A stretch of DNA of 18,874 nucleotides from Rotaria magnacalcarata (lineage: Eukaryota): positions 25,393-44,266 of the forward strand of contig CBCSLL010001102.1 of the NCBI GenBank assembly GCA_965140935.1, read 5' to 3'. The notes under the pieces are model-generated. The model was not told the DNA's origin and did no database searches. It saw only the letters and a program-made list of their open reading frames with translations. This document shows positions 1-18,874 of this stretch, piece after piece (the stretch's first letter is position 1; each line of letters opens with the position of its first letter). Position numbers and translations under genes: made by a program.

Positions 1-118
1 CAGGTTACCATAAAAAATCTCAGGGCAGGGTGTACACAAATGTCTACAGGGCAGGGCAGGATCAGGTTGCAAAATTTTTACAGGGCAGGTTACAGGTTAC
101 AAAAATGTTGCACCCTGC
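1..118. repeat. Cluster of short G-rich repeats: CAGGGCAGG three times and CAGGTTAC three times, ending in a partially inverted copy (caccctgcag); truncated by the window edge
   Basis: Direct reading of repeated 8-9-mers in the first 118 nt. GC content is above the local background. Confidence 0.5.
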
Positions 119-227
119 AGTGCTCTAGATGATTGATTAACTAGTCCTTCTAATCTTTTCACAAACGTATACTATATAATAGCTGTACTCATGTATTGGT
201 AAATAGTGTTCATACGTATATAGCGGT

Positions 228-248
228 GTATATATATATATATACATA
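228..248. repeat. (TA)n microsatellite
   Basis: gtatatatatatatatatac read directly. Confidence 0.8.
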
Positions 249-1339
249 TGCACTCATATTAGAAATTTTGCGTATTGTGTGAAGGATCGAAATTAAAATA
301 AAAAATCTCTCTCACTCTAAATTCAGCCATTCGTTATCTGTCAATTAACTCTGATGATGAGAAATGGATTCAGTTTCTACAATAACTGTAATCGACCATT
401 TAATAAACGTCATTATTAGTCATATTTCATTTAGCGACACAACTAGCTAAAGCAGCAATTATGCTTGTTTCGATTCATTAGGAAAAGTTACTTGATCTGG
501 TTGAGATGTGATTTGCTTTAGAAAAAACTAAAATTATCGTCAGATTCAATGATGTCGCTGAAGTACTCTGAAAGAAAGTAACAATCAACTGAAATGGCTT
601 TTCCTCTCGTTGCTTGTTTTTCTACAGAATTTTATTCAAAATAATATTGCGAGAAAGAACATCATTAATTTAAAAGGGCTTTTCTTTTTAAATTTTCAAA
701 CATTAGTTCGCATGGCTTAACATCGTCGAATTGATATTTATTAGCATTGTGATTGCATTTATCTTATTTGCTTTTGGTGCAGTGATATTTGTTGCAAGTC
801 AAAGAAGTGTTGACAACGCTTACATTATGGCTCCGACAATAATTATTGTCATAGAAGCCATATTACTGTTTTCTTATTTCGCTGTAAAAGCAAGTCTTAT
901 TTCTGTTTCAATTTTTTAATATAATTACTTTAATTCATTTTCAGACGTTTATCGTCAAATATAGTTTCAAATTGGCACGAATCATTAAAGCTAATAAACA
1001 GTTCATCACTCAAAAAGTCTAATTCTTCTTCTTTACTAAACTGTCATATGTTTCATTTGATCTACGTAGTATTCAATTTTATTCTGTAATATTAGCTAGA
1101 ATACTTTTTTCTCTCAGTAAATTGAAATAAATGTAGTATTATAATAATGAAATTATATGTCACGAAAAGAGGAGTATACTCTCGGTGAAAGAAATATTAA
1201 AACCATCGATCAAATCTAACGGCATTAATGAATTAGACTTATCTTCTTATGATAAAAAAATGCTTTATATCTGTTGAGAGTACTTGCCGTACATTCGATT
1301 GCAATTTCAGCAAGAAACATTCTGAACACGATGTACGAA

Positions 1340-1705
1340 TGCTAACTTAGAGATCTGCGTGACCAAAGGAAAAGGAAATTCTTCGATAATAGTTTCCACG
1401 GTGGATGTGAAAAAATAATTCTGTTTCGTGTTTTCTACTCGGAATTTTAAGCTCTTCAAAGTGACACTAAATAGTCGAGGATACAATCGTCTATGATGGA
1501 GAAAACTGCGGCGCATTCGTCACGACCGGTCGCGACAAATGTGCACCAGTTTTCTTCATCATAGATGTGTCATTTTGAAGAACTTAACATTGTGAGTAGA
1601 AAACATCAAGCAGAATCATTTTTTCATATTCACCGTGGAAATTGTTATCGAAGAATTTCCTTTTTCTTTGGTCACGACGAAATGGTTACGTAGATTTCTA
1701 ATGCT
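1340..1705. repeat. Long imperfect palindrome (hairpin-forming inverted repeat, foldback-like), centred on gaccggtc at about 1523-1530
   Basis: Left arm 1358-1470 (cgtgaccaaaggaaaaggaaattcttcgataat...ctgtttcgtgttttctactcggaattttaagctcttcaaagtgacac) is the reverse complement of the right arm 1560-1679. The central segment cgtcacgaccggtcgcgac is itself palindromic. Flanks (tgctaac, agatctctaa/agatttctaa) partly extend the symmetry. Confidence 0.75.
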
Positions 1706-2393
1706 AACACAACAGAAGTGAGATGTCAGTTGAATTATTTTACGAAATGCTTAAACATATGATCATGTACAGCGAATAGATGATTTTTTTTACTAAAATC
1801 TAAGAAAAATGAAGTGATGACATCTATTAAACATCGTTGTATCATGATGTTTTATTCGTTTTCGAACAATTACAAACTTCATAAATACAATGAGTTTAGT
1901 TTTAGGCTCCGTCGACGCTCACCATCATACCAACATCCATACTCTAAAAATGATTACGTTAGCAAGAATTCAGTGAAAGAAAATATTGTTATCGACGACC
2001 AATATTTTTGTTTATATTACTGTAAAATATAACGGAAATCTGATGATTTTAGTATTCTATTCCTCATCTATATGAGATCACAAAATTTTTTATGTCAAAC
2101 AAAAATCATTTGCAACGCACAGCAGCATGCAAGTGGATCATTGAAAATTGAATTCATCATTAGAATTTAACTAAAGGTAAATTCTAACGCAATGCCAACG
2201 CCTTATGAGGATTAAACAATATTTTATACAACATGGAAATTATTTGTTTTTGAATTTGGCGGCATGGATCACCTGTCGTGGTGTCAGTTACTCTTAAGTA
2301 GATGTGTAATCGCAAGATCGTTTATGGAATGAGCTTCTAGTAAAAACTTTGCCAAATCAAAACACGATCTGCATCTTTTATTGAGCACAATAT

Positions 2394-3241
2394 GTAGGGT
2401 AAGTTACCCTAACAACAACACTAAAAAAATGACACGACTTGATTGATTCGGTGTACATATATTTTATATCCGACTGAAATTATTCTTACATGTGCATAAT
2501 CCTTGGAGTGTCCTCTTTCGAATGGTGAAACAACCACCCTTAACTGAGCTGTAGTGACTGAGAAAGCAGCGGTCTAAGAAAAGAACCTGTATCTGCTGTT
2601 GTTAGGATTCATTTTCCTAGTAGCAACGCTTAGCTATTTTTTGAGTATAATAACGGCGCATCATTATGAAAATAATGTCAGAGAATTTATTCATAAATAG
2701 CATATCTATTTATAATCGTTGTATAGGAACGATAACAAACTCAACTAGTTGAGTGTTGTTATTGGGGTGAAAAAATAGTTGGTTGTTGTTATTAGGGACA
2801 AAATTTCTTTTTCGATTTTAGACCTTCTTGTTTAAGAAAATTTATTTCACTCAAACTAACAACGAGTTTTCATGAATCTTTGGTCAATAAGAGAGATCGA
2901 CACGCTCTACAAAATTGCTACAGACATCTCTCGTGTATCTCTTATAAGAAATGTGAAAAAAACGTTTTTTTTTCTTGAAAAAGATAAATTTCCTTGAACT
3001 TTTTTAGTGTTGCTATTAGGGAAATGAACCATAACAACAGCAGATGCAAGTTTTTTTCGTAGACCGCTGATTTCTCAGTCACTACAGCTCAGTTAAGGAT
3101 GGTTGTTTCACCATTCGAAAGAGGACACTCCAAGGATTATGCACATGTAAGAATAATTTCAATCGGATGTAAAATAGATGTACACCGAATCAATCAAGTC
3201 GTGTCATTTTTTTAGTGTTGTTATAGGGTAACTTACTCTAC
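2394..3241. mobile_element. Foldback / MITE-like non-autonomous element: about 235-bp inverted arms (2394-2632 and 3007-3241, roughly 95% identical) around a 374-bp core carrying degenerate subrepeats of the arm-terminal motif (gttgttattaggg / ttataggg)
   Basis: The reverse complement of 3007-3241 aligns base by base with 2394-2632: gtagggtaagttaccctaacaacaacactaaaaaaatgacacgacttgattgattcggtgtacat...agcggtct...ctgctgttgttaggattcatttt. There is no ORF inside and no obvious target-site duplication. Confidence 0.6.
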
Positions 3242-3976
3242 CGGTTACTACACTGTAAAAAAAGTCATCATCCTATCGACTATACATACATGTAGCTTTC
3301 ACACATTAAACATAGCGCGTGTGCATTTCTTGAAACAAACTGAGCTATACATACGTATATCCACACTTCTAGGGTTAATTTTTTTCTAAAAAAAGTTAGT
3401 CATAATCAGTAAGCGTGAATGCGTGTTTATTCAATTAACCTCAGCTTGAAGTCTATTTTTTTTTCATCGAAGAATACAAAATATTCAAGAGTTTCTTGAT
3501 TAAAATAAGATAAGTATTAGATGATAGTCATTCGGAAATAATTGAAGCCGGTTAGAATCAGTTCTCAGAGATTAGTACGATCAATACCGACGAGTAAATG
3601 TTGAATGAACGGATGCCATGATGAATCTCTCAATTCTAATTGTCTACAATAGATACCATTACGTTGGCACGCCTGCTGATAGAATTCGATTGCCTGTTTT
3701 ATTTTTCCATTCATGTTAGCCGGTAAACAGTTGCAAAGATTGATCTTAATGATAGAAGAGAAAGTTGAATGAAGAATGAAAATACCGAAAAAAGAAATCG
3801 AATCACTTTGATTTGTTCAATACTAGTTAACATTTCAAACATATTCTGTTGTAATGATTGTGTTTTAAGAAAGAGCCACAGAAGAATGACACCAGTACCA
3901 ATCAAACGAAGAAGTTCGTTGCGCACATTCAAAGCTAATAAAATAAAATTCGTTTTTCTATACATCAATATGAAAA

Positions 3977-6926
3977 TCATCGAATATTACCGAGTGAATT
4001 AAAACCTTGTTCACGCAAATAATGTTCAAGACGATTAAAAATTTCACAATCGATATGAAGTACATCAGCTAACTGTTTATTCAATATAAATGAACCATCC
4101 TGTATTTGAATTCAATAAAAAACAAAAAATAAGTGCCGTAAATGATAATTTATACTACCTCATATTGAAGTTGCATAATCGCTTCAATCATAGTTTTTGT
4201 AGATTGAACATCTTTGAGCTTACCAAGAAGTGTATCATCGATTGTTTTACCTAAATTCATGAATTATCATAGTTTCTTTTGAGAATACTAACAAGACATC
4301 GACGAACCTAACGTAGTAGCAAGTTCACCCGAAAAATTATGTATTACAGTTTCGGTTTGGCCGTCAAGCTAACAAAATGAACAACAACAGAACAATCGAA
4401 TTACAACAAAATGATACGCTACGCACTGTGTACAATGGATCCTCAGGCTTGCGATCATAAACTGCAAAATAGAAAGAATTAAATATCATTTTTTTTTTGA
4501 AACACTGACCAGATTTAGCTTGGAAGTCTGCATCGCTTTGGACATAAGCAATATGTCGTTCAATGTCATCTACTGACGATCCTAGAAAAGTTTAAAATAT
4601 ATTTAAAGATCAAATGAAAACAAATCGAGTAATTAACGTACTTGCGACATCACCAGGGTTGATACTAATGGATGCTTTGGCACCTGAACGTGCTTCTTCG
4701 GCATCAACTCGAATTATACCATTCGCATCGATCTCCATTCTAATAGCTATTTCGAGCGTCTGAGCAGCAAAGTTACGTGTTAGGCCGCTCAGACACAGTT
4801 CTCCCAACAGTAGCTAAAATAGAAAAAAAACACTATAGAATGAAGTTTATCCATTTAGTTCACGACATACATTGTATTTTGTCAGATTATGTTCGCCTTC
4901 AAATACGCGAATAGAAGCTGTCGTTTGATAGGCATAAGCATTGGTGAATATTGAATAAAATTGAGTTCGCGTTGGAATCGTTGTATTACGACGAATAAGT
5001 ATGTGCATGCGACCGTGAGTATCTTCTACACCCAAGCCCAGTGCACAGACATCGAGGAGTAATAGGTCGTGGATGGATGCTTGTGATGTCACCTCAGCTT
5101 TGGTTGCCCTGTGAGAGATCAGCTTTTATTTTTATTATCATTTAAAATAATTTCACAAATAACGATTAACGATTAACATTTAACCGTTGCGCATATCTGT
5201 GAAATCTTACAGTACTTACGTTCTTCGTTGTTTTTTCTTTTTACGTGACATCATATGTAAGTCTGTACTTTCTGATTCGGCGTTTTGCATATCACTCTCA
5301 TCAAAGCCTCTCTAGAAGCGAGTGAAAGTTTTGCAAAAATATTGCATACTCAGTTACATACTTCAGCCACTTTGAACGCTTGCTTCATTGACGTATTCAT
5401 TCTTTTGCATGAGGTATCAGATAAGGTACTCATGGGAGCTTTCGGTTGTAGTACCTGAGCTGCCTGCATGTAGTAGCCACTACTACTACTACTATCACAA
5501 ACTGCTACAGATGCTTGCTTTGATGACGATGATGAAAATGAAGGAGAAAAAAGGTTTTTAAAATAATCTAGGCCAGATGACGATATTGGTGAGATACCTA
5601 GAATATATAAATTTATGCAACTATCAATCGATCCACAAGAATAATATGTTGAACTATGATAAATTATATTACTACCATAGATAAAGTAATGAAATATCGT
5701 GATCTTTTAGATTTGCGTTATTATATTTATCATATGTCTACTGAATGAAGATAAAGCTAAGATGATTGCATATCACTTGGAGACAGTGTTTCTTTAGAAA
5801 ATATTGTCTACCTGGCTTTGGTATGGAGCGAAGATGATTGCATAAACTACAGTCTACTATTATAAAAAATAGATTTAGAATTTTTTTAACTATAATTTTT
5901 CGTGATTATTTTTTGAATTTGTCTTAGGAAACTACATTATTTACAAAGGTATTACACATCTATTCAGAAACGACAGGTCTAATAGTAAACTACTGCAAAC
6001 TATCCACCGCATATTCATTATACATATAGCTTGCATTTATGAAATACAACATTATTTACATTTTGTATTCCGAGCTGTGCTTTGTATTTCAATAGGACAA
6101 CCAATAAGAGCAATCCTACGAAAAGCTAACTATATACTACGAAATATACCATAGACTTCTAATGGACGCAACCGATTCAAATATATTATGGCTACAATGA
6201 AACTTCAGGAGTAACATAAATCGAGGAAATGATACTGATTGCGAAAGAGAAGTAGTAGAAGTAGCGGCTTTTGCCATTTCTAGATATCGTAAGTTCATCG
6301 ATGATAGAAAATGGCAATGCCGAGTACAGAAATTAGTATTATTCTATTTGTGACTCACCAGCTGCTGATTGAGAATTCATTTGTGATGCCATATTCAGAA
6401 AAGTTGCGTTGTTATTATTGGTGTTGTTTATTATTTGATCTGCTGCATCCTTCCTTAGATTTGATGCATTAGCATTCATAAACATATTCTGAAGCTGTTC
6501 ACTAGTACCAGGGGCTGCCATATCAGAATAGGGCTTTGATGTATCCATTGAGGATGTCGGCGAAGAGAAAAGGTTTGATATTAAACCTCTATCTCTCAAT
6601 ATAGATCTCTTTTCTGCAAATTGTTGTCGGTATACCAGTAGCTGTTGCCGCTGCTGCTGCGGTGGTAGCGGTGGTGGTGACATTCTCATTGACAGTGGCA
6701 TTGGCGGTGGTGGCGGTGGTGGTAGTAGTGGTGACATTGACGTTGGCATTGGCGGTGCCGCTGATACTGACATTCTCATTGACATTGGTATTAGTGGTGC
6801 TGGCGGTGGTGATGACATTCTCATTGACAGTGCCATTGGCGGTGGTGGCGGTGGTGGTAGTAGTGGTGACATTGACAGTGCCATTGGCGGTGCCGCTGAT
6901 GATGACATTTTCATTGACATTGGCAT
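3977..6926 (-). CDS. Gene 2 (10 exons, 562 aa): N-terminal Pro/Met/Ser-rich tandem-repeat and Q/N/S-rich low-complexity region joined to an Hsp70-type substrate-binding domain (SBD-beta plus helical lid). No Hsp70 nucleotide-binding domain is present. Exons on the minus strand: 6359-6926, 5362-5597, 5220-5311, 4871-5108, 4642-4813, 4510-4581, 4427-4461, 4308-4368, 4159-4250, 3977-4099 (stop included)
   Basis: All junctions are canonical GT-AG with consistent phases, and the total of 1689 nt is 3 x 563. Translation of 4871-5108: ...TATKAEVTSQASIHDLLLLDVCALGLGVEDTHGRMHILIRRNTTIPTRTQFYSIFTNAYAYQTTASIRVFEGEHNLTKYN. Translation of 4642-4813: LLLGELCLSGLTRNFAAQTLEIAIRMEIDANGIIRVDAEEARSGAKASISINPGDVA. 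Translation of 4510-4581: RSSVDDIERHIAYVQSDADFQAKS. These align with the Hsp70 SBD (HSPA8-like DLLLLDV...KRNTTIPTK...VYEGER...LLG.FEL.GIPPAPRG.PQIEVTFDIDANGIL.V.A.DK.TG....ITI.NDKGRLSKE.IERMV). Introns are 38-63 nt, except the 761-nt first intron. The 3' lid exons are less certain. Confidence 0.7.
4642..4813 (-). CDS. Gene 2 exon 5: remainder of Hsp70 SBD-beta (LEIAIRMEIDANGIIRVDAEE...ISINPGDVA)
   Basis: ORF 4610..4807. Acceptor ttttag|CTACTG at 4813, donor GCAA|GTACGT at 4642. Confidence 0.75.
4871..5108 (-). CDS. Gene 2 exon 4: start of Hsp70 SBD-beta (DLLLLDV...RRNTTIPT...VFEGE)
   Basis: ORF 4847..5092 extended upstream to the acceptor ctctcacag|G at 5108. Donor AAT|GTATGT at 4871. Confidence 0.75.
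6359..6926 (-). CDS. Gene 2 exon 1: ATG at 6926; Pro/Met/Ser-rich repeats, then a Q-rich and N/S-rich low-complexity tail, ending at a G|GTGAGT donor
   Basis: ORF track 6339..6926 (MPMSMKMSSSAAPPMALSMSPLLPPPPPPPMALSMRMS...QQQRQQ...NNTNNNNATF...SQSAAG). The donor GTGAGT at 6358 splices in phase to 5597. No in-frame stop lies between the upstream acceptor-like ttaatag at about 6990 and the ATG. Confidence 0.6.
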
Positions 6927-6948
6927 TGGTGGTGCTGGCGGTGGTGGC
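6679..6948. repeat. Coding tandem duplication: 2 x 135 bp (each made of two ~67-bp subunits), encoding 45-aa repeats MSMRMSSPPPAPLIPMSMRMSVSAAPPMPTSMSPLLPPPPPPP on the minus strand
   Basis: gacattctcattgacagtg[g/c]cattggcggtggtggcggtggtggtagtagtggtgacattgac... recurs at 6679 and 6814. All three minus-strand frames and one plus-strand frame are open only because of the repeat (ORFs 6589..6966 and 6662..7006 are artefacts of it). Confidence 0.85.
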
Positions 6949-7161: not shown

Positions 7162-8221
7162 GCTAATATTTCGTTTAAAAATAACTAAGCATGTAAAAAT
7201 CACTACTACAGAATGGTAGGTGATGTTCTTATAACGTACCTCGACTCACCCAAATAAAAATACAGCTTTGTTATGAAAAACAGTAGTATGGCAGTATTTT
7301 ATACAAAGAAGAAATAATTTATGTTCGGTTAACCTTCGACTATTTCACAGCTACATGCAAGGAGAAAACAGGTGAAATCGGATTCTTTTTGTTGATTTTC
7401 CTTTTGATTTTTCTAATTTTAAACCAACTGATTTTAAGCGAAGAAACTCAGAAAAAATTTTTAAAATTGAAAAAATCGGAAAAATCCAAAGAAGCAAAAA
7501 GCAGCCCCATTTCAACTGTTTCACTCTCGATTAACATTTTCAAGCACAAAGATTAAAAATTTTAGCATTCTCATTGATTTGTCTGATGTTTTTCATTTTC
7601 ATTTTTGATTTAAATCAAAAAGTCAGTTTTTCCTCCCTTGCCGACATATCATAAAAATATTATAAAATTGATTGAGATAAAGATCACAAAAATACTTTCT
7701 TTTAATGTAAAGCAACAATCGATATCTTTTGTCAAGACTATTATAATTTCTAACAGTCTCAGAGCTATATAATCGAAATGGATACATATTTAAAGCACAG
7801 CAAAATAATCGGTTTAGTAAAAGATAATCGATGCATTGGTAAAAGTTTTCTTCGTTTCTGATGCTACTTGAAAATAAACATCACCGTTTCTAGTACTGTC
7901 AAACATAGTAGAATCACTTTCTAGCTGTATCTTTCTTTTGTCTTAATATCACTTTTTTTGAAACAAAATTCATCACAAATATTTAGATTAGCATGCACTC
8001 TTTCACTGTTTATTGCAATAAATACTGACGAAACACATGCAAATCTATACATTGGTGTTGAATTTTTTCTTTTTTAAGTGATATTAAGATAGAAAAATTT
8101 AAAGAAAATATTGGCCTTAGTGCTTTATATTATGATATGAACGCCGCTGATAATATTTAAACAACATGCTAGGCACTTATTTGAAGGAAATATGGTTCTT
8201 TCCACAATAATCTTTAATTTT

Positions 8222-8304
8222 TTGAAAAATATAGGAATATAGGAAAAAAGCTCAAAATATAGTCTATTATAGGACTAACTTGAAAAATATAGGAAATATA
8301 GGAG
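8222..8304. repeat. Second cluster of the same motif (TTGAAAAATATAGGAA(A)TATAGGA twice, plus a degenerate copy), same orientation, 1.14 kb from the first cluster
   Basis: ttgaaaaatataggaatataggaaaaaag ... aatatagtctattataggac ... cttgaaaaatataggaaatataggaggac. Confidence 0.6.
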
Positions 8305-8874
8305 GACTGCGATGCCAGAGTAAAATGTATTCGGATAAATTAAGAACGATTTGGTAGCGTAGCTCCTTTATGACTACCATTTGAAACTCACATATATTAT
8401 TTTGCTTCCCTAAGCGAATGCAAACTATATATAAAGTAAAAACTCTTTCGTAGTGTTTCACAAAAGATCTGCATACATCTAGAGCATCTACTTCCCGCTA
8501 GAAATGAAGACAGAATGCTATAGGCTTAACTTCAAATATCACCTGTAGTTGTTGTACTGGTATGGCTCATATGATAAAGCGGTGTTGACATAGCAGATTT
8601 TGATGAGCTTTGACATCGTTCCAATGGTTCTGAAATGCGATAAAAATTAGACATTAGCATGTCAGAAGCACCCCTACGTGGTTGTAGAGGCATCGTGGAT
8701 GGTGCAGCAAATGACTCTGTAAAGAGATTAAAGAATATAGAGAAATAAGCTGGAAGCTAAGAATAATCTCACGTAAACTTCGCCCTGTCCTCTTTTCGTT
8801 CATTTCTTTTTGAGGAATTTCCTTTAAATTTTGCTTCAATTCTGATTTCGAAAGTAAATAAAATAAAATAGATT

Positions 8875-12755: not shown

Positions 12756-15700
12756 TCACTCAGTTTTTTCAGTAATAGTTTCACAGCAGCGTTGGTACCG
12801 CAAAGAGCGTACTATATATAAAAATAGAATCACTGAGATGCTGTAACATGCTTAGACTATAAAAATCAATCTCTTCTGTCTTTTTCTCTCGATTGTAAAT
12901 TAAAAACTCTTCTTACCATCATCTTCCAGGAATTCTTTCATTCTAGAGAAATAATAACAAGTGTTGTTTTCGAATTCAATCTTTCTGCTTTGTTACATAC
13001 TCTTCGTTCGTTGTGATCCTTAAATTGTTTGCTGCACATCGTTGTTCTAATGCTTGTCGTTCTTCTGTTGTCGCGCTGAGCATCTCATTCTTTATATCTA
13101 TTTTATAATTTTTTGAAATAATAATTCTTTTAATTTTTATTCTCACTGAATCAACATACCGTTTCGCATTTTATCTTCAAGTTCATTTGCTTTATCACGT
13201 TCATTTAATGAATGACGATATGTACGTATAATAGACATCATCATGTCGAATTTAGCATCACCACCTGCTCGATAGGAGATTTTCTTACAAAGTTTTTCAA
13301 TATCAACAACCGATTCTTTTTTGCCAAGAATCGATGCACTTTCAAGTGAAACACGACCATCGATTAGTTTCTGTTTAATTAAAGCCAAATTTGATTTATC
13401 ACCATCCCATTCTATGTATGGTAATATATCGACATCTCGATCAAGCATAACATCGATGAGACGAACGCCTAACATTGAACAAAAAAATCTAGTTATCATA
13501 GAATATGAGTATTCTACCAACCTGGTTGGAGAGTCGACTGATCTGTTTTGGCATCACGTTCTTCAATGGCAACAAAACTCGTATATGGACTGACAACAGA
13601 ATAATTAATACTCAAATCTATGAGATCTTGTTTACATTGAATTTTAATCAATTCGTTTTCGCTTTCGTCTTCATGTAATATTCCGTTTTCATAATCGTCA
13701 ATTATCGCCCGTGCGGTTAGACAATGTAGAATACGTCCTCTAGTTGTTGTCATTGGACTACTGAATACAGTAGTGACAAATTCTTGCCCATCGATAGTCG
13801 CCGTTAATGTTGCTTTATGGCAATTATGAATAAATCGATAGACGCTGAGTCGCATTCCATCGAACAAAGATCGAATCATTTTTGGTGCTTGCATATTGAA
13901 TTTTTGTCCTTCGTCCAAACCACCATGCCAATCAATCGATATGCTCGTAACACATGGTTGTCGGGTATGTTCGAGAATCTCCAATACTTTTGTTTTCCAC
14001 TTCGATCGATAGTTCGAATCGAATATTGTTACTAGACCACCTCCTCGTATCCCACGAGTTAACTGTTTCAGCCCATGTTTGTTAGCAACATTTCCAATTG
14101 AACATGCAAATAAACGATCACAGCGCATAGTTGATCGATGTTCAAGTAGAGCAATAATCGAATTAACATCATGGATATGTCCATCAGATAAAAGAATAAA
14201 TTGGCGACCCGATTTCGACGACGATACAGATGGTAGCAATGAATATCGATGAAGAACTGCTAACAAATCTGTATTACCACGATGAATAAGTGAATGCTAG
14301 AATATAAGAATTTCATTACAAAACAAAACTCATCTCAAACACAAAAAATACCAACCAGAACAAAATGTTTGGCTTTATCTAGGTTCTCTTTTGTAGTTAG
14401 TGTTGAAATTGGAAAACATTCATCATTATCTAAATAGTTCAAATTTCAATAGTAGGCAAAATAATATGGTTGACTATCATCGTATTACCTGATCCAAAAG
14501 TAACTACATTGAAATATGTATTTTTATTATCAACTTTCAAATGAGTAAGAAATAAATGAGCTAACTGTTTAGCTTGTTGAACATGACTACCATCCATTGA
14601 ATTCGATACATCGACAATGAAAATAATTTCAACTGTTTCGTTCGACATCGATAATGTTTCGAATCTTGGATAAAAAGTAAGTAAACATGCTTCAGAATCG
14701 CGATTGTTCGATGTCGTTGTTCCATTGTCATCATCTAATGTCCATGTTTCATTTGATATTCGAGGTAAATTAGCACTTTTAAGTGTTACCGAAAGAACAA
14801 AATCTCGATCGAGTAAAACATTATCGACAAGTTCGACCATGGCCATACAATCGGTCAGTTTTCGACGAAGACGATGTGTCGGCGAAAACAATTTGATTAT
14901 TTCATAGGGCATTCGAATAGATGTTTTAAAACTGAATTCGACTTTTTCATCAACAATATCAATAGATCGTACAGTCGATTGATCTTTTGTTTCAATGGCT
15001 TGTTTCGATTGCCATGAAGCCATTTTTGCTGGAAGTCGAAAGATAATATCACCATTCTCGATTTCTAATTCGGCAACATAGGTTATTTTGATAATGACTT
15101 CATTGTTGGCTGGTAAGTTACCAACAGCTACGCTGAATACTTGAGCCTGCTCCTGATGCATCAAATAGGCACCGTGACCTTTTTCGATTGCTTCTCGATA
15201 TTCTTGTTTGGCTTGTTCTTTCTCTTTGACTACACCTTTAATAATTTTATTATTGATATGTGCTTCAAAACCACATACAGTTGAATTTTCATCAAGTGGA
15301 AACACATATTTAGCTTCAATAGGTATTGAACTCGTATTATGATAGACTTGATAGAGAACAACCTTATCGATGAAAACAAAACAGGATGTGTTAGTTGATC
15401 AAAGTAATAGCTATAATTACTTCAACTGTAGCATCGACGATTTGAGCTCGAATATGAAATGATTTCAGTGGTACAAGTTTGCCCGATGATGGGCATACTA
15501 AGCCATAGTCTTGTTCGGCTACTTCAATAATTTCATCGTCAATTGTCAAAGGAACTTCGACTAGAATTTCGTAGATAACCTAGCTGAATTTTATTAGAAG
15601 ATAAAGAATCATTATTACCATGTTCACTGAGTTTCAATGCATGTTGCTCATGATGAACAACGGGTAAACGTTCCAGTGCAATATTGATATTATCATTTGG

Positions 15701-18197
15701 TATCCATGAAACTTCCACAATGTAGAGTAAACGTTGTTGATCGAGTTGATAAATTGCATATTCATTATCCTATTTCAATAGAAATCAGATTTTTTATTCC
15801 AACATTTAGCATGTTGGTATAAGTGACACTGATCCGACAATTTCGTATCTAGTTTTATTGAAAATAATGAATACAAAGATATAGGACACAATGTCAAATA
15901 TTGATCTCTCTCTTTTTTCTATTGTATTGCCACGACATTCATGGCTACTTGTTCACAACTATTTTTCTTCATATTTTTATCAAATATTTGTTGAAACTCT
16001 GGCAGTGATACACGATAAAAGTGCTTTCCACAAGCATTCGCGAATGTAATATTATCAGACATAATACAAGCAAACTACTTACGCTAAACATGGAACGATT
16101 TTCTTCCGTTCGTTTGACACCATGCGTACTATGAAAACCATCAGGAGGTTTGGTGATTGTCGGTGAAAATGAATAATAATTAGCTGATTCACCGAGGGCG
16201 ACTTGACAAACACATAGTAGTCGGCGACCTGGTCGCGTTGTGCTAGCTGTCGTATATTTTAGCGACGTAGAAACAGAATCAGAAAAGTAAATTCCGTAGC
16301 CAAGACAACCAATATCAGTACGCACCACACCTAATTCTTCAACTACCATTTTTGGCATGGCCAAACCACTGAATGCATACATTCACACAATAGATATTGT
16401 CTCGAGAGAAAGATGAATAGTTTACCGTGAAAGAATTCCAAGAAAATTGGCATATTTTGATCCGTGAAATAGTTGCTGTTGATTTGATAGTGATGTTCGA
16501 AAGTTGAGTGCATCTGTTTGTTTGGCTACGCTGAATATTTGATGAATAACGATTTTTTCACCACTAACGAACAGAGAGAAACCGATAATTGTGAAATCAA
16601 AATTCAATTCAACTCACTTATCTGTTGACGATTGAATATGTTCAGCAACATTCATAAATTCAGGTGTTGAACTATCGACTATTTCAATATGACAGTTCAA
16701 TGCTCGATATTTTGCTTCAATTGGAGCTTTAGTATTCCAATTGGTTAGTTCATTGACTGTGAGCATATCTCGAAGTAACTAAAAGAGCAAAGTGTTCAAT
16801 GAAATTATTAAAATAAATCGACATACCTGACATAAGTCAATTTTTTCAGTTAGTGCTCGACGATTTTTTACGAGGTCAACCTTATACTCCGCACGATGAG
16901 GAATAAGTGAATAGAAACGAAGTGCAGCAGCAGGATCATTAGTTGACTTGAGTTCAAGTAGTGCAGCCTCAGCTTCAATGATCTGTTCAGTAGTTTGAAA
17001 TAAAACTTAATTGGAATACATAAAAGAAAATGAATATATGCGTACAGTTTTGAGAGTAATCGATTCAGGTAATACGCTCAATATTTTATTCAAATCACCA
17101 ATCGATTCTAACCAAATCGATTCAATTAATTGGCATACGTTATCGTCGAGTATTTGTGTATCAATACGATTAGCAAATAAAGACTAAAAATATTTTATTT
17201 AGTATTGAAAATAAAACTTCCTAATTAATATCATTGGCTTACACGTAGTAATAGTTTTGATCCCAATTTATCTGGTAACATTTCACGAATTCGTGTTACA
17301 CGTGGCATTTTAGCTATTCGATAATAGTATGATGCAAACAGTTGTTGTTGTTCGTTGGGTTCATCACCGAATGCATATTGTATCAATACTCTATTATCTT
17401 GCTTTTGTCCTTGTCTTACAATAGTCTGCTTTTCGTATCGAAACCGTAATCGATAATCAGTCATTGTTCGATCAAAGTATTGTTCCGGAATAACTTGAAG
17501 TTCAAGTACGAAAAATACCTCTGAATTGTCATTAGTTTCCTATGAAAAATAAATACAATAGAAGCACATTAAAGCGATAAAAGAATAGAATTTTACTTTG
17601 AAAATGGCCCACTTCGCTATTTCACAATGTGTCAATTCATCAAAACGAGGTAAATCAACATCGTCTGCATTCCATAGTTTGATTTTATTCAAATCAAATC
17701 GATTAGCTTTAATGCTAGTTGCTTGAGATCCTAACAAGGAACGATGTACGACATCAATCAAAACACAAGAGCAAATATATGATACCTGCAACGGAAATAG
17801 TGCCTGTTTTTGTAAAATTCTCCTGATCTTCAACTGATTTGACAATAAATTTGCTAATGTCAATTGGTGTTTGACCCGCCTGTAAACGCCGACATTCATA
17901 TACATATTCAACATTGACCAATGGCAAGCCAAGTTGCTTTGCACGACGGACTTTGTAGCTATCGAAATTATTCGTAACCAATATGTAGTCAGTCTAGAAC
18001 AAATTCTATTAAGACAGCATTTTATGTAGAATAGAAGAACAACGTACACTAGCAGTAAGTATATATGAAATATGTGCTTGCTGTTCTCGTAAATAGTTGA
18101 TCAAGTCTTGTTTAGCCTTGAATCCTATTTCACGACCGAGCTCGAGTACAATTGTTTTACCATTGAATGGCGATAAAAGTGTGGCAGATACACTCAT
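12756..18197 (-). CDS. PARP4: Gene 1 (18 exons, 4170 nt, about 1389 aa): PARP4 / vault poly(ADP-ribose) polymerase-like protein with BRCT - PARP helical plus catalytic domain (H-G-S, Y and NEY catalytic residues) - VIT - vWA - C-terminal tail. Exons: 18048-18197, 17786-17993, 17597-17730, 17243-17539, 17046-17183, 16827-16982, 16618-16778, 16426-16563, 16083-16368, 15619-15769, 15421-15560, 14489-15362, 14356-14429, 13522-14296, 13160-13468, 13001-13097, 12917-12942, 12756-12811
   Basis: Every junction was read as GT-AG with consistent phase, and the exon sum is divisible by 3. BRCT: NGKTIVLELGREIGFKAKQDLINYLREQQA... and TDYILVTNNFDSYKVRRAKQLGLPLVNVEYVYECRRLQ. PARP signature: QQQLFHGSKYANFLGILS|RGLAMPKMVVEELGVVRTDIGCLGYGIYFSDSVSTSLKY...RRLLCVCQVALGE...KPPDGFHSTHGVK...|DNEYAIYQL. 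VIT: VEVPLTIDDEIIEVAEQDYGLVCPSSGKLVPLKSFHIRAQIVDATVE|VVLYQVYHNTSSIPIEAKYVFPLDENSTVCGFEAHINNKIIKGVVKEKEQAKQEYREAIEKG. vWA: EIIFIVDVSNSMDGSHVQQAKQLAHLFLTHL...NVVTFGS...DLLAVLHRYSLLPSVS...ILLSDGHIHD...YSVVSPYTSFVAIEER. The last three small exons (12756-13097) are the least certain. The gene symbol reflects domain architecture, not a database hit. Confidence 0.8.
13522..15362 (-). CDS. PARP4: PARP4-like exons 12-14: VIT domain and von Willebrand factor A domain (14489-15362, 14356-14429, 13522-14296)
   Basis: ORFs 14439..15305 and 13514..14266 extended to acceptors cgataag|GTTGTTC (15362) and tattctag|CATTCAC (14296). A 74-nt micro-exon at 14356-14429 keeps the frame (...NVVTFGS|DNDECFPISTLTTKENLDKAKHFVL|HSLIHRGNTDLLAVLH...). 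Confidence 0.7.
15619..16563 (-). CDS. PARP4: PARP4-like exons 8-10: PARP catalytic core (H-G-S motif, donor-loop Tyr, catalytic Glu in NEYAIY), exons 16426-16563, 16083-16368 and 15619-15769
   Basis: ORFs 16422..16607 and 15969..16382 are joined by the CG|GTAAAC donor and cattcag|T acceptor to give ...GILSRGLAMPK.... Donor AGC|GTAAGT at 16083 and acceptor gaaatag|GATAATGAATATG at 15769. Confidence 0.8.
17786..18197 (-). CDS. PARP4: PARP4-like exons 1-2: N-terminal BRCT domain (spans one 54-nt intron at 17994-18047)
   Basis: ORFs 18009..18197 and 17754..17981. Donor AGT|GTACGT at 18048 and acceptor ttgttctag|ACTGAC at 17993. Confidence 0.75.
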
Positions 18198-18295
18198 TTT
18201 TTTGTGTCTAAAAATTTAGTAAATTTTTATCTTGTTTTCAAGTCGAATAGAAAACTAAAATAGAATTTTCTGCTGTAGTCTGACTACATACTCAT

Positions 18296-18310
18296 CGTTT
18301 ATAAATGCGA
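18296..18310 (-). promoter_or_regulatory. TATA-like element (TTTATAAA) about 105 nt upstream of the PARP4-like ATG. A strong acceptor-like aaatttttag sits 10 nt upstream of the ATG
   Basis: Plus strand cgtttataaatgcgagc reads TATAAA on either strand. Position only; not verified. Confidence 0.25.
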
Positions 18311-18700
18311 GCATTTTATTTCTGATGACTAATGCGGTTATTTATTATTTTAGCGAAAGAAAAAGAGAAAATAGGTTATAGACTTCAGATTTTGCTATTT
18401 TTCTTTATGATTCTACACACTTCGCACGTGTTGTGTTATTGCACAAGCTGTCGTAACACGTATATTATAGGAATTTAAGCATGTTGTGCATCAGAACCTG
18501 GCTACACAATTTACGATAGATGCCATTACCAATCTAAAATGTCGGCTGGTTAAATATTTACAAATTTTACAGTGAAATACATTCTCAACAAGTAAAATGT
18601 CAAGAACTATGTAATGTAGACTATGAGTATGATTAGAAAAGCCAATAGAATTCACCAATGAACTCCTTCAGCGAAATGTGAAGCATTTAATATATGGAAG

Positions 18701-18874
18701 TGGCTATGTACACTCAGGTGCACATAGCCATGTGGCTATATGCACTTGAGTACACATAGCCAGTTGGCTATATACACTTAGGTGTACATAGTCGCATGAC
18801 TATGTGCACTCAAGTACATATAGCCGACTGACTATGTACACCTAAGTGTGTATAGCCAACTGGCTATGTGCACT
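18701..18874. repeat. Tandem array of alternating inverted 13-mers (TGGCTATGTGCAC / GTGCACATAGCCA) with 2-4-nt spacers. It consists of about 5.5 hairpin units of ~31 bp, each internally palindromic, and runs off the window edge
   Basis: tggctatgtacac tcag gtgcacatagcca tg tggctatatgcac ttga gtacacatagcca gt tggctatatacac ttag gtgtacatagtcg catg actatgtgcac tcaa gtacatatagccg ac tgactatgtacac ctaa gtgtgtatagcca ac tggctatgtgcact. Confidence 0.85.

Follow-up and report, generated by a model that had tools for sequence, protein, structure and literature searches.

A non-autonomous element with long terminal inverted repeats in Rotaria magnacalcarata, a probable relic of a TA-inserting DNA transposon family

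An 18,874-nt stretch of the genome of the bdelloid rotifer R. magnacalcarata (the window) contains, at positions 2394-3241, two long arms in inverted orientation separated by a short core. The preliminary description of this locus, made from the letters alone, saw in it a Foldback or hairpin MITE element; occurrence in a single copy, with no relatives elsewhere and no small RNAs, would have made it a local inverted duplication with no history of transposition. The locus raises two questions, whether the inverted repeat is a mobile element and, if so, to which group of elements it belongs.

The inverted repeat and its genomic setting

A repeat search of the window detected ungapped arms at 2414-2630 and 3006-3222 (217 nt, 94% complementary), extended by an 18-nt terminal pair, 2394-2411 and 3224-3241. 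Gapped BLAST joined these segments into a single 237-nt alignment of 2394-2630 with 3241-3006, with 92.8% identity (E = 4e-98), and the core between the arms was found to occupy 2631-3005. Two inverted arms of ∼235 bp had been described, with a length that agrees with ours and an identity (∼95%) that was set slightly too high; the core, previously given as 374 bp, is present and measures 375 nt. Between the two arms of this copy there are 17 differences; one of the outer motifs has a 1-nt indel, and the terminal position is G/A between arms. Folded as single-stranded DNA, the region reaches −283 kcal/mol versus −76.5 ± 5.2 kcal/mol for shuffled sequences (z = −39.8).

Comparison with relatives (see below) moved the ends of the element from 2394 and 3241 to 2397 and 3238; G2394 and C3241 are flank bases that pair by chance. 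The element and its immediate borders are as follows.

2397-3238, no strand: whole element (842 bp), a non-autonomous DNA transposon copy bounded by long inverted repeats and delimited by the aligned termini of ∼36 related loci
2397-2630, minus strand: left arm (terminal inverted repeat), pairing with 3006-3238 at 92.8%; match to the family arm profile with nhmmer E = 6.5e-73
3006-3238, plus strand: right arm (terminal inverted repeat); match to the family arm profile with nhmmer E = 4.3e-73
2395-2396, no strand: TA at the left end, putative target-site duplication
3239-3240, no strand: TA at the right end, putative target-site duplication

The longest stop-free stretch in the element has 60 codons and no Pfam family was matched at the cut-off, in agreement with the earlier statement that it has no coding capacity. 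Being non-coding and non-autonomous, the element must be mobilised in trans, as had been proposed. Self-BLAST of the element against the window revealed no further copy in these 18.9 kb; scans of the window for tRNA genes and Rfam families also found none.

Long ORFs of the bacterial kind are absent from the window. An Hsp70-like gene has its last recognisable exon ending near 3974, and the element is situated ∼720 nt downstream in ORF-poor sequence, which makes the intergenic position originally assigned to it reasonable. The Hsp70-like exons match sequences of Rotaria sp. Silwood2, Rotaria sp. Silwood1 and R. sordida. Farther away, minus-strand exons encode VIT, vWA and PARP domains that are 79-87% identical to proteins of R. 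sordida, Rotaria sp. Silwood1 and metagenomes; the identity to Didymodactylos carnosus is 60%. Three orthologous or ohnologous loci, from Rotaria sp. Silwood2, R. sordida and an ENA contig, are 71-77% identical to the window at the DNA level, and their homology to it stops at ∼3551. An empty site was found neither at the three Hsp70/PARP4 loci nor at L042 and L043, where homology ends before the element.

Several other features of the window were recorded. The Hsp70-like gene (3974-5101, minus strand) is short and has the substrate-binding domain only; its match over the joined exons to Rotaria gene models (108-217 aa) is only 46-58%, and it could be an Hsp70 paralogue that is truncated or divergent. 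On the minus strand, 12910-18476 holds a PARP4 (vault PARP)-like gene in several exons, among them those for the PARP catalytic, VIT and vWA domains; its DNA identity to several rotifer contigs is 73-85%. One bdelloid PARP4 contig shares an ENA/JGI sample series with L005. The adjacency of PARP4 and Hsp70 is kept in L002, where the gap between the two genes is ∼1.6 kb; in the window the gap is 8 kb and holds a GC-rich island (6339-6946, minus strand; 50% GC versus ∼32% elsewhere). The island includes a 195-aa ORF rich in Pro, Met and Ser (MSMRMS...PPPPPPP) and a 135-nt unit in 2.1 copies (92%). At 18700-18874, a tandem array of a palindromic 32/64-nt unit (GTGGCTATGTACACTyAAGTGTACATAGCCAC-like; 2.7-5.3 copies, 72-76% match) runs off the window end; it could represent a satellite or the terminal part of a different element.

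Related loci and the anatomy of the arms

The query that worked was the stop-free translation of the right arm (3063-3212), used as a protein in a HMMER search. The search returned short ‘proteins’ that are translations (spurious ORFs) of related elements. The closest relative, P0172 (66% aa identity), is collinear with the window: its path leads through three tandem ‘CCYxGQ’ units (translations of GTTGTTATyAGGGAC) to the core and then to the right arm. A profile built from these translations (alignment A3) retrieved 14 ORFs, while a degenerate-pattern scan of metagenome contigs produced 33 loci. The nhmmer arm profile matched all of these metagenome loci (33/33), plus L004-L006 and L040-L041. 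In total, the protein and metagenome collections contain ∼36 related loci, which fall into ∼20 subfamilies at 90% identity; the arms of the window copy are 60-74% identical to all other arms. An exact 21-mer from the arm had no match in metagenome contigs, being too strict a query for a family so diverged. Viral contigs contained no relatives of the arm alignment or of the L027 transposase fragment (see below), and prokaryote genome contigs contained no relatives when the arm alignment was used as query. The family is represented by the bdelloid-rotifer genome studied here and by environmental assemblies.

Both arms are kept in several relatives. In L004, arms at 7992-8225 and 8584-8818 (99% identical) enclose a 358-nt core, and from end to end, through the core as well, the locus aligns with the window element at ∼70% nt identity (alignment A4); the core therefore belongs to the element and is not captured host DNA. 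Two inverted arms were also seen in L010 (88% identical), in L009, and in L012 and L026, where the left one is cut at the contig edge. L014, which is the same as L020, is a two-armed copy of 3.4 kb; its ends share ∼800 nt and it has tandem repeats inside, without an ORF.

These loci bear directly on the reading of the repeat as a palindrome or inverted duplication that arose in situ, through replication fold-back or break repair, and never moved. Such an origin would agree with the presence of one copy in the 18.9-kb window and with the three related Rotaria loci, which have no counterpart of window positions 1-3550. It does not account for two arms and a core, homologous throughout, occurring in unrelated flanks of other assemblies, nor for sharp termini conserved across ∼20 subfamilies. 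We consider a local duplication extremely unlikely for the window copy; at the family level, the recurrence of the same architecture in unrelated flanks rules it out.

Some of the relatives had peculiarities of their own. The interior of L014/L020 (L020 1884-2207) is a minisatellite with a 33-nt unit, translating as ‘NHLNKNKINLSQ’, in at least six repeats; the copy number varies between metagenome samples. At L007, an NHL-repeat host gene (527-1019) is located where the left half of the element is expected, with the core and right arm left, so that this locus is either half an element or a truncated copy. At L009, the flanks beyond both arms (1-73 and 1460-1532) are identical and inverted over at least 30 nt, as a result of an assembler fold-back artefact or of the element being placed within a larger palindrome; L009 was left out of flank counts. 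Finally, P0164-P0168 are giant predicted proteins (833-4536 aa) with up to 24 weak repeats of ‘FFSETIAPRRTGPGSFERARRALYAHIFFVQIG’, which resemble the arm translation (FS.T.A..R....FER....YAH....IG). Each repeat matches with 2-8 bits and significance comes by summation; these proteins may contain a distantly related repeat in another organism, or the likeness may be due to chance.

One candidate for a conserved arm peptide, ‘TADFS...PFERGxSKDY’, was rejected. In the family consensus a stop codon falls in the sole frame that seemed conserved: an in-frame TAG is located just upstream of the peptide, without a conserved start. One codon within the block is variable at all three positions, and the database holds just those copies that chance to be open.

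The motif GTYGTTATTAGGG occurs in six copies within the element. With at most three mismatches allowed, GTYGTTATTAGGGA has 12 matches in the window, a number reached in 0 of 200 shuffles; half of the matches (6/12) are within the 842-bp element, on the minus strand at 2406 and 2614 and on the plus strand at 2755, 2785, 3009 and 3217. The degenerate sub-repeats quoted in the preliminary description were found again, at 2785-2797, 3013-3023 and 3221-3231. The motif copies and conserved blocks are arranged as follows.

3208-3238, plus strand: outer motif copy of the right arm (TTTTTTAGTGTTGTTATAGGGTAACTTACTC), putative outer transposase-binding site; mirrored at 2397-2428
3000-3042, plus strand: inner motif copy of the right arm (AGTGTTGCTATTAGGGAA), then an inverted half-copy (CCATAACAACAGCAG), putative inner binding site; mirrored at 2594-2630
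3110-3143, plus strand: the most conserved block of the arm (ACCATTCGAAAGAGGACACTCCAAGGATTATGCA), near-invariant in 32 arms; mirrored at 2493-2526
3058-3077, plus strand: second conserved arm block (TCGTAGACCGCTGATTTCTC), with a TAG stop by which a conserved reading frame is excluded
2746-2799, plus strand: two tandem 30-nt core units with one motif each (GTTGTTATTGGGG, GTTGTTATTAGGG)
2732-2762, no strand: small palindrome, an internal centre of symmetry (self-complementary at 93.8%), at the junction of a degenerate inverted motif copy and the first tandem unit
2800-3005, plus strand: one-sided core block, homologous to the L004 core and to L027 1440-1635, the sub-terminal region between the arm and the transposase gene

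The outer motif of the right arm is a direct repeat of 3000-3024 (88% over 25 nt). The motifs at 3000-3024 and 3208-3231 have the same orientation, are 208 nt apart and are mirrored in the left arm; this arrangement is kept in 32 arms, across which GTYGTTATTAGGGAAA is among the best conserved blocks. Motif-to-motif order and spacing are nearly gap-free in all subfamilies. Given that the arm alignment is nearly gap-free at 60-75% identity, the spacing is constrained.

Conservation equal to that of the motifs, or higher, was observed in TCGTAGACCGCTGATTTCTC and in ACCATTYGAAAGAGGAnnnTCCAAGGATTATGCA. The latter is the consensus of the ∼34-nt invariant block at 3110-3143 (ACCATTYGAAAGAGGA...GGATTATGCA), near-invariant in contrast to the rest of the 32 arms, which elsewhere are 60-75% identical. 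We infer a cis-acting role for this block.

The motif exists in two variants, GTCGTT and GTTGTT (10 versus 9 elements), and with one exception all copies within an element, the inner one with its inverted partner as well as the outer one, have the same variant. Such covariation in sequence would fit co-evolution with one binding protein; alternatively, it may come from a single ancestral split. In the core, the number of tandem motif units in relatives ranges from 3 (P0172) to 7 (the extra copies of L027). The translations P0172, P0174 and P0171 span the core block 2800-3005, and L004 has a pair analogous to the 2732-2762 palindrome (8211-8254 and 8332-8375). The left tip (TAGGGTAAGTTACCCTA) looks palindromic because its terminal GAGTAAG adjoins the inverted motif.

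A transcript through the element would form a ∼235-bp duplex, and blocks within the arm are more conserved than a mere spacer would be. Both observations would be expected of a host-exapted hairpin-RNA or small-RNA locus, or of another structured RNA gene, for which transposition was secondary. Set against this are the lack of a Rfam match, the decay of the window arms to 92.8%, the existence of copies in unrelated flanks and the consensus fold of 20 arms, which is weak (−8.9 kcal/mol) and pairs only the motif with the inverted motif, on which ground a conserved RNA structure in the arm was rejected. We judge an exapted RNA locus very unlikely. Incidental siRNA from a transposon hairpin is compatible with a transposon copy as the main explanation. 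Judged by the fold potential, siRNA production from the ∼235-bp duplex of a transcript is plausible.

Termini, target site and candidate transposase

Aligned on the profile, 32 distinct termini have the form ...GTYGTTATTAGGGAAAnnGACT(C/G), then TA, and conservation stops after the TA. The pattern in short is ...TTAGGGAAAnnGACT(C/G)TA, or ...GTTGTTATTAGGGAnnTTGACTG followed by TA, with divergent flanks beyond; L016 has a 1-nt shift relative to the other termini at the TA. In about half of the subfamilies the end reads ...GACTG before the TA (that is, 5′-TA followed by CAGTC, the classical Tc1/pogo tip), and in the others ...CTC. The window's own termini are GAGTAAG and GGGTAAG, not CAGT; the flanks adjoining its TA are GCACAATATG on the left and CCGGTTACTAC on the right.

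No direct repeat longer than TA was found at the four complete copies whose flanks are independent (the window copy, L004, L010 and L014). Since nothing past the TA is repeated in these copies, duplications of 3 bp (TWA), 4 bp (TTAA), 8 bp and 9 bp are excluded. Near-identical ends (at least 90% identity) with three different flanks each were observed in three subfamilies (L023/24/27, L029/30/33 and L009/13/15), which indicates at least two insertions in each. From these alignments we infer that TA is probably the duplicated target, while it may also be a part of the repeat and not a duplication.

The tips invite comparison with a piggyBac-type MITE, which would have CCCTAA...TTAGGG ends at TTAA. 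CCCTAACAAC and GTTATAGGG do resemble the CCC...GGG ends, and TTA and TAA adjoin them. However, conservation in the family extends 10-13 nt past CCCTAA/TTAGGG, to ...GACTCTA; no copy has TTAA on both sides, and the TTA and TAA of the window are mirror images, not direct repeats. A piggyBac origin is hardly credible on these grounds.

The sole coding link was found in L027 (Ga0116226_10148328), a single 2.4-kb contig that ends before the catalytic domain and does not reach the other end of the element. Inward from its terminus, L027 contains an arm (1635-1877), the core block, seven further motifs in the same orientation (1150-1400) and a minus-strand ORF with a start near 707, ∼930 nt inside the inner end of the arm. 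The ORF matches HTH_psq (E = 2.5e-5, 24 bits versus the Pfam cut-off of 20.4) and, weakly and below cut-off, HTH_Tnp_Tc5 (Tc5/CENP-B HTH; E = 0.037) at ‘ISRHWLKDFLKRNK’; the sequence ‘IWNVDESGF’ is located at the contig edge. As far as the predicted domains go, their order is that of pogo-type transposases. A pogo-like transposase of the L027 type is the probable trans-acting partner, an assignment made with moderate confidence because no second coding link was found; physical adjacency is no proof that the gene is a member of the element. The interiors of L007, L013, L016, L023, L031, L032 and L014/L020 contained host genes, tandem repeats or nothing, and no transposase; a comparison of the L027 fragment with PDB sequences gave no informative match. 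L023 and L027 are 96.6% identical over the terminal 840 nt only, which fits repeats of ∼840 nt in that subfamily.

With the termini and the linked ORF at hand, the Foldback label can be assessed. In Drosophila, FB arms are arrays of 10/20/31-bp tandem repeats and insertions are flanked by 9-bp target duplications. A member of this superfamily would be expected to have arms made of tandem sub-repeats, a 9-bp target-site duplication and mobility by an FB4-type transposase or by recombination. The element does fold back through its long arms and repeats the terminal motif internally, and the number of 30-nt units varies among relatives. Foldback-like elements are reportedly present in bdelloids. 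One such insertion was tentatively described there (PMC2861651). Yet each arm has two motif copies with 208 nt of unique conserved sequence between them, tandem units are confined to the core and TRF detected no array in 2394-3241. The four complete copies have TA only, without a 9-bp duplication, the termini read ...ACTG (or ...ACTC) before TA, and the linked ORF is psq/CENP-B-like, with a pogo-like N-terminus, not FB4-like. What survives of the Foldback/hairpin MITE description is a non-coding transposable element whose terminal inverted repeats are long and whose terminal motif recurs internally; Foldback as a family label is not supported, and membership in that superfamily is highly improbable.

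We conclude, with a probability of about 0.8, that 2397-3238 is an old, internally deleted, non-autonomous copy from a family of cut-and-paste DNA transposons inserting at TA (IS630/Tc1/mariner/pogo). The placement in this superfamily is suggested by the TA flanks, the tips and the linked fragment, and most likely the family belongs on the pogo side.

In the mechanism that we propose, members of the family would be cut and pasted into TA dinucleotides, as in IS630/Tc1/mariner/pogo. The ends would be the long inverted repeats, ∼235 nt here and up to ∼800 nt in relatives, in which a 13-16-nt motif (GTYGTTATTAGGGAAA) is repeated in the same orientation at the very end, ∼208 nt inside and in further tandem copies deeper. 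These motifs would serve as binding sites for a transposase supplied in trans, probably a pogo-like one with psq and CENP-B-type helix-turn-helix domains. The transposase would pair the two ends and cut at the outer sites, as at the IR/DR ends of Sleeping Beauty.

The window copy itself is probably immobile now and an inactive relic, because its arms are 7% diverged, an outer motif carries an indel, a terminal base is changed and a transposase is absent; arms of apparently young copies are 99-100% identical. It appears to be decaying without evident effect on neighbouring genes.

A further and more tentative suggestion, which we regard as possible and rather doubtful, is that the family is an undescribed pogo-like lineage that independently acquired IR/DR-like multi-site ends together with an extra cis-acting function of the arm. 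In such a lineage, repeats of up to 0.8 kb would combine an outer site with a palindromic inner one and as many as 7 sites in tandem. Candidates for the extra cis function would be an ordered-synapsis checkpoint, a host-factor site or an inward-facing promoter.

Comparison with known systems

DNA transposons of bdelloids are diverse and make up ∼2.5% of the genome; MITEs were detected apart from the RepeatMasker annotation of transposable elements and account for <1% of unclassified repeats, and many repeats in bdelloid libraries are left unclassified (PMC7943196). For annotation, our analysis replaces an odd ‘foldback’ with a defined repeat that has exact ends (2397-3238, flanked by TA). The arm profile recognises a diverse, possibly unclassified, DNA-transposon family in bdelloid-like sequence.

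Stowaway-like and other mariner-derived MITEs are similar to the element in being non-coding and flanked by TA, in their mobilisation in trans by a transposase of the Tc1/mariner superfamily and in their hairpin potential. Typical MITEs, though, are 100-400 bp long; with 842 bp and structured arms of 235 nt, the element exceeds them in size and complexity and is of borderline size for this class. Drosophila FB elements, too, can fold back, vary in internal repeat number and have non-coding short forms; unlike them, the family has neither tandem-array arms nor a 9-bp duplication.

In pogo, Tigger and Fot1 elements, the inverted repeats are short (∼20-70 bp) and each end has one site. The likeness to this group consists in TA flanks, ends in ...ACTG before TA in many subfamilies, non-autonomous deletion derivatives and the order of predicted domains in L027 (HTH_psq, then Tc5/CENP-B-like HTH, then ‘(N)xDE(S/T)G’). 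The difference is in the repeats, which are 235-800 nt long in our family and contain many sites.

Sleeping Beauty has IR/DR ends, each with two sites, which ensure that synapsis comes before any cleavage beside the outer sites; integration occurs at TA (PMC5224488). Tc1-like elements of this type (Sleeping Beauty, Tc3, Minos, Bari3 and Paris) have in common with our family the TA flanks, repeats of ∼200-250 bp and an outer and an inner site in the same orientation; the extra one-sided motif copies seen here are comparable to the half-DR enhancer of Sleeping Beauty (PMC5224488). This match is structural and, on our side, comes from sequence. There are four points of difference: an inverted half-site accompanies the inner site, relatives have repeats that reach ∼800 nt and as many as 7 additional sites in tandem, the terminal bases in the window are GAGTA and not CAGT, and the linked fragment encodes a predicted psq plus CENP-B-type HTH, unlike the PAIRED-like transposase (PAI+RED, DD34E) of Tc1 and Sleeping Beauty. 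The element would thus work like an IR/DR transposon, but we do not file it as a member of that group because the linked transposase is not PAIRED-like. If the family does prove to be pogo-like with IR/DR-style ends, it would provide a useful comparison for the ordered-assembly model of Sleeping Beauty transposition (PMC5224488).
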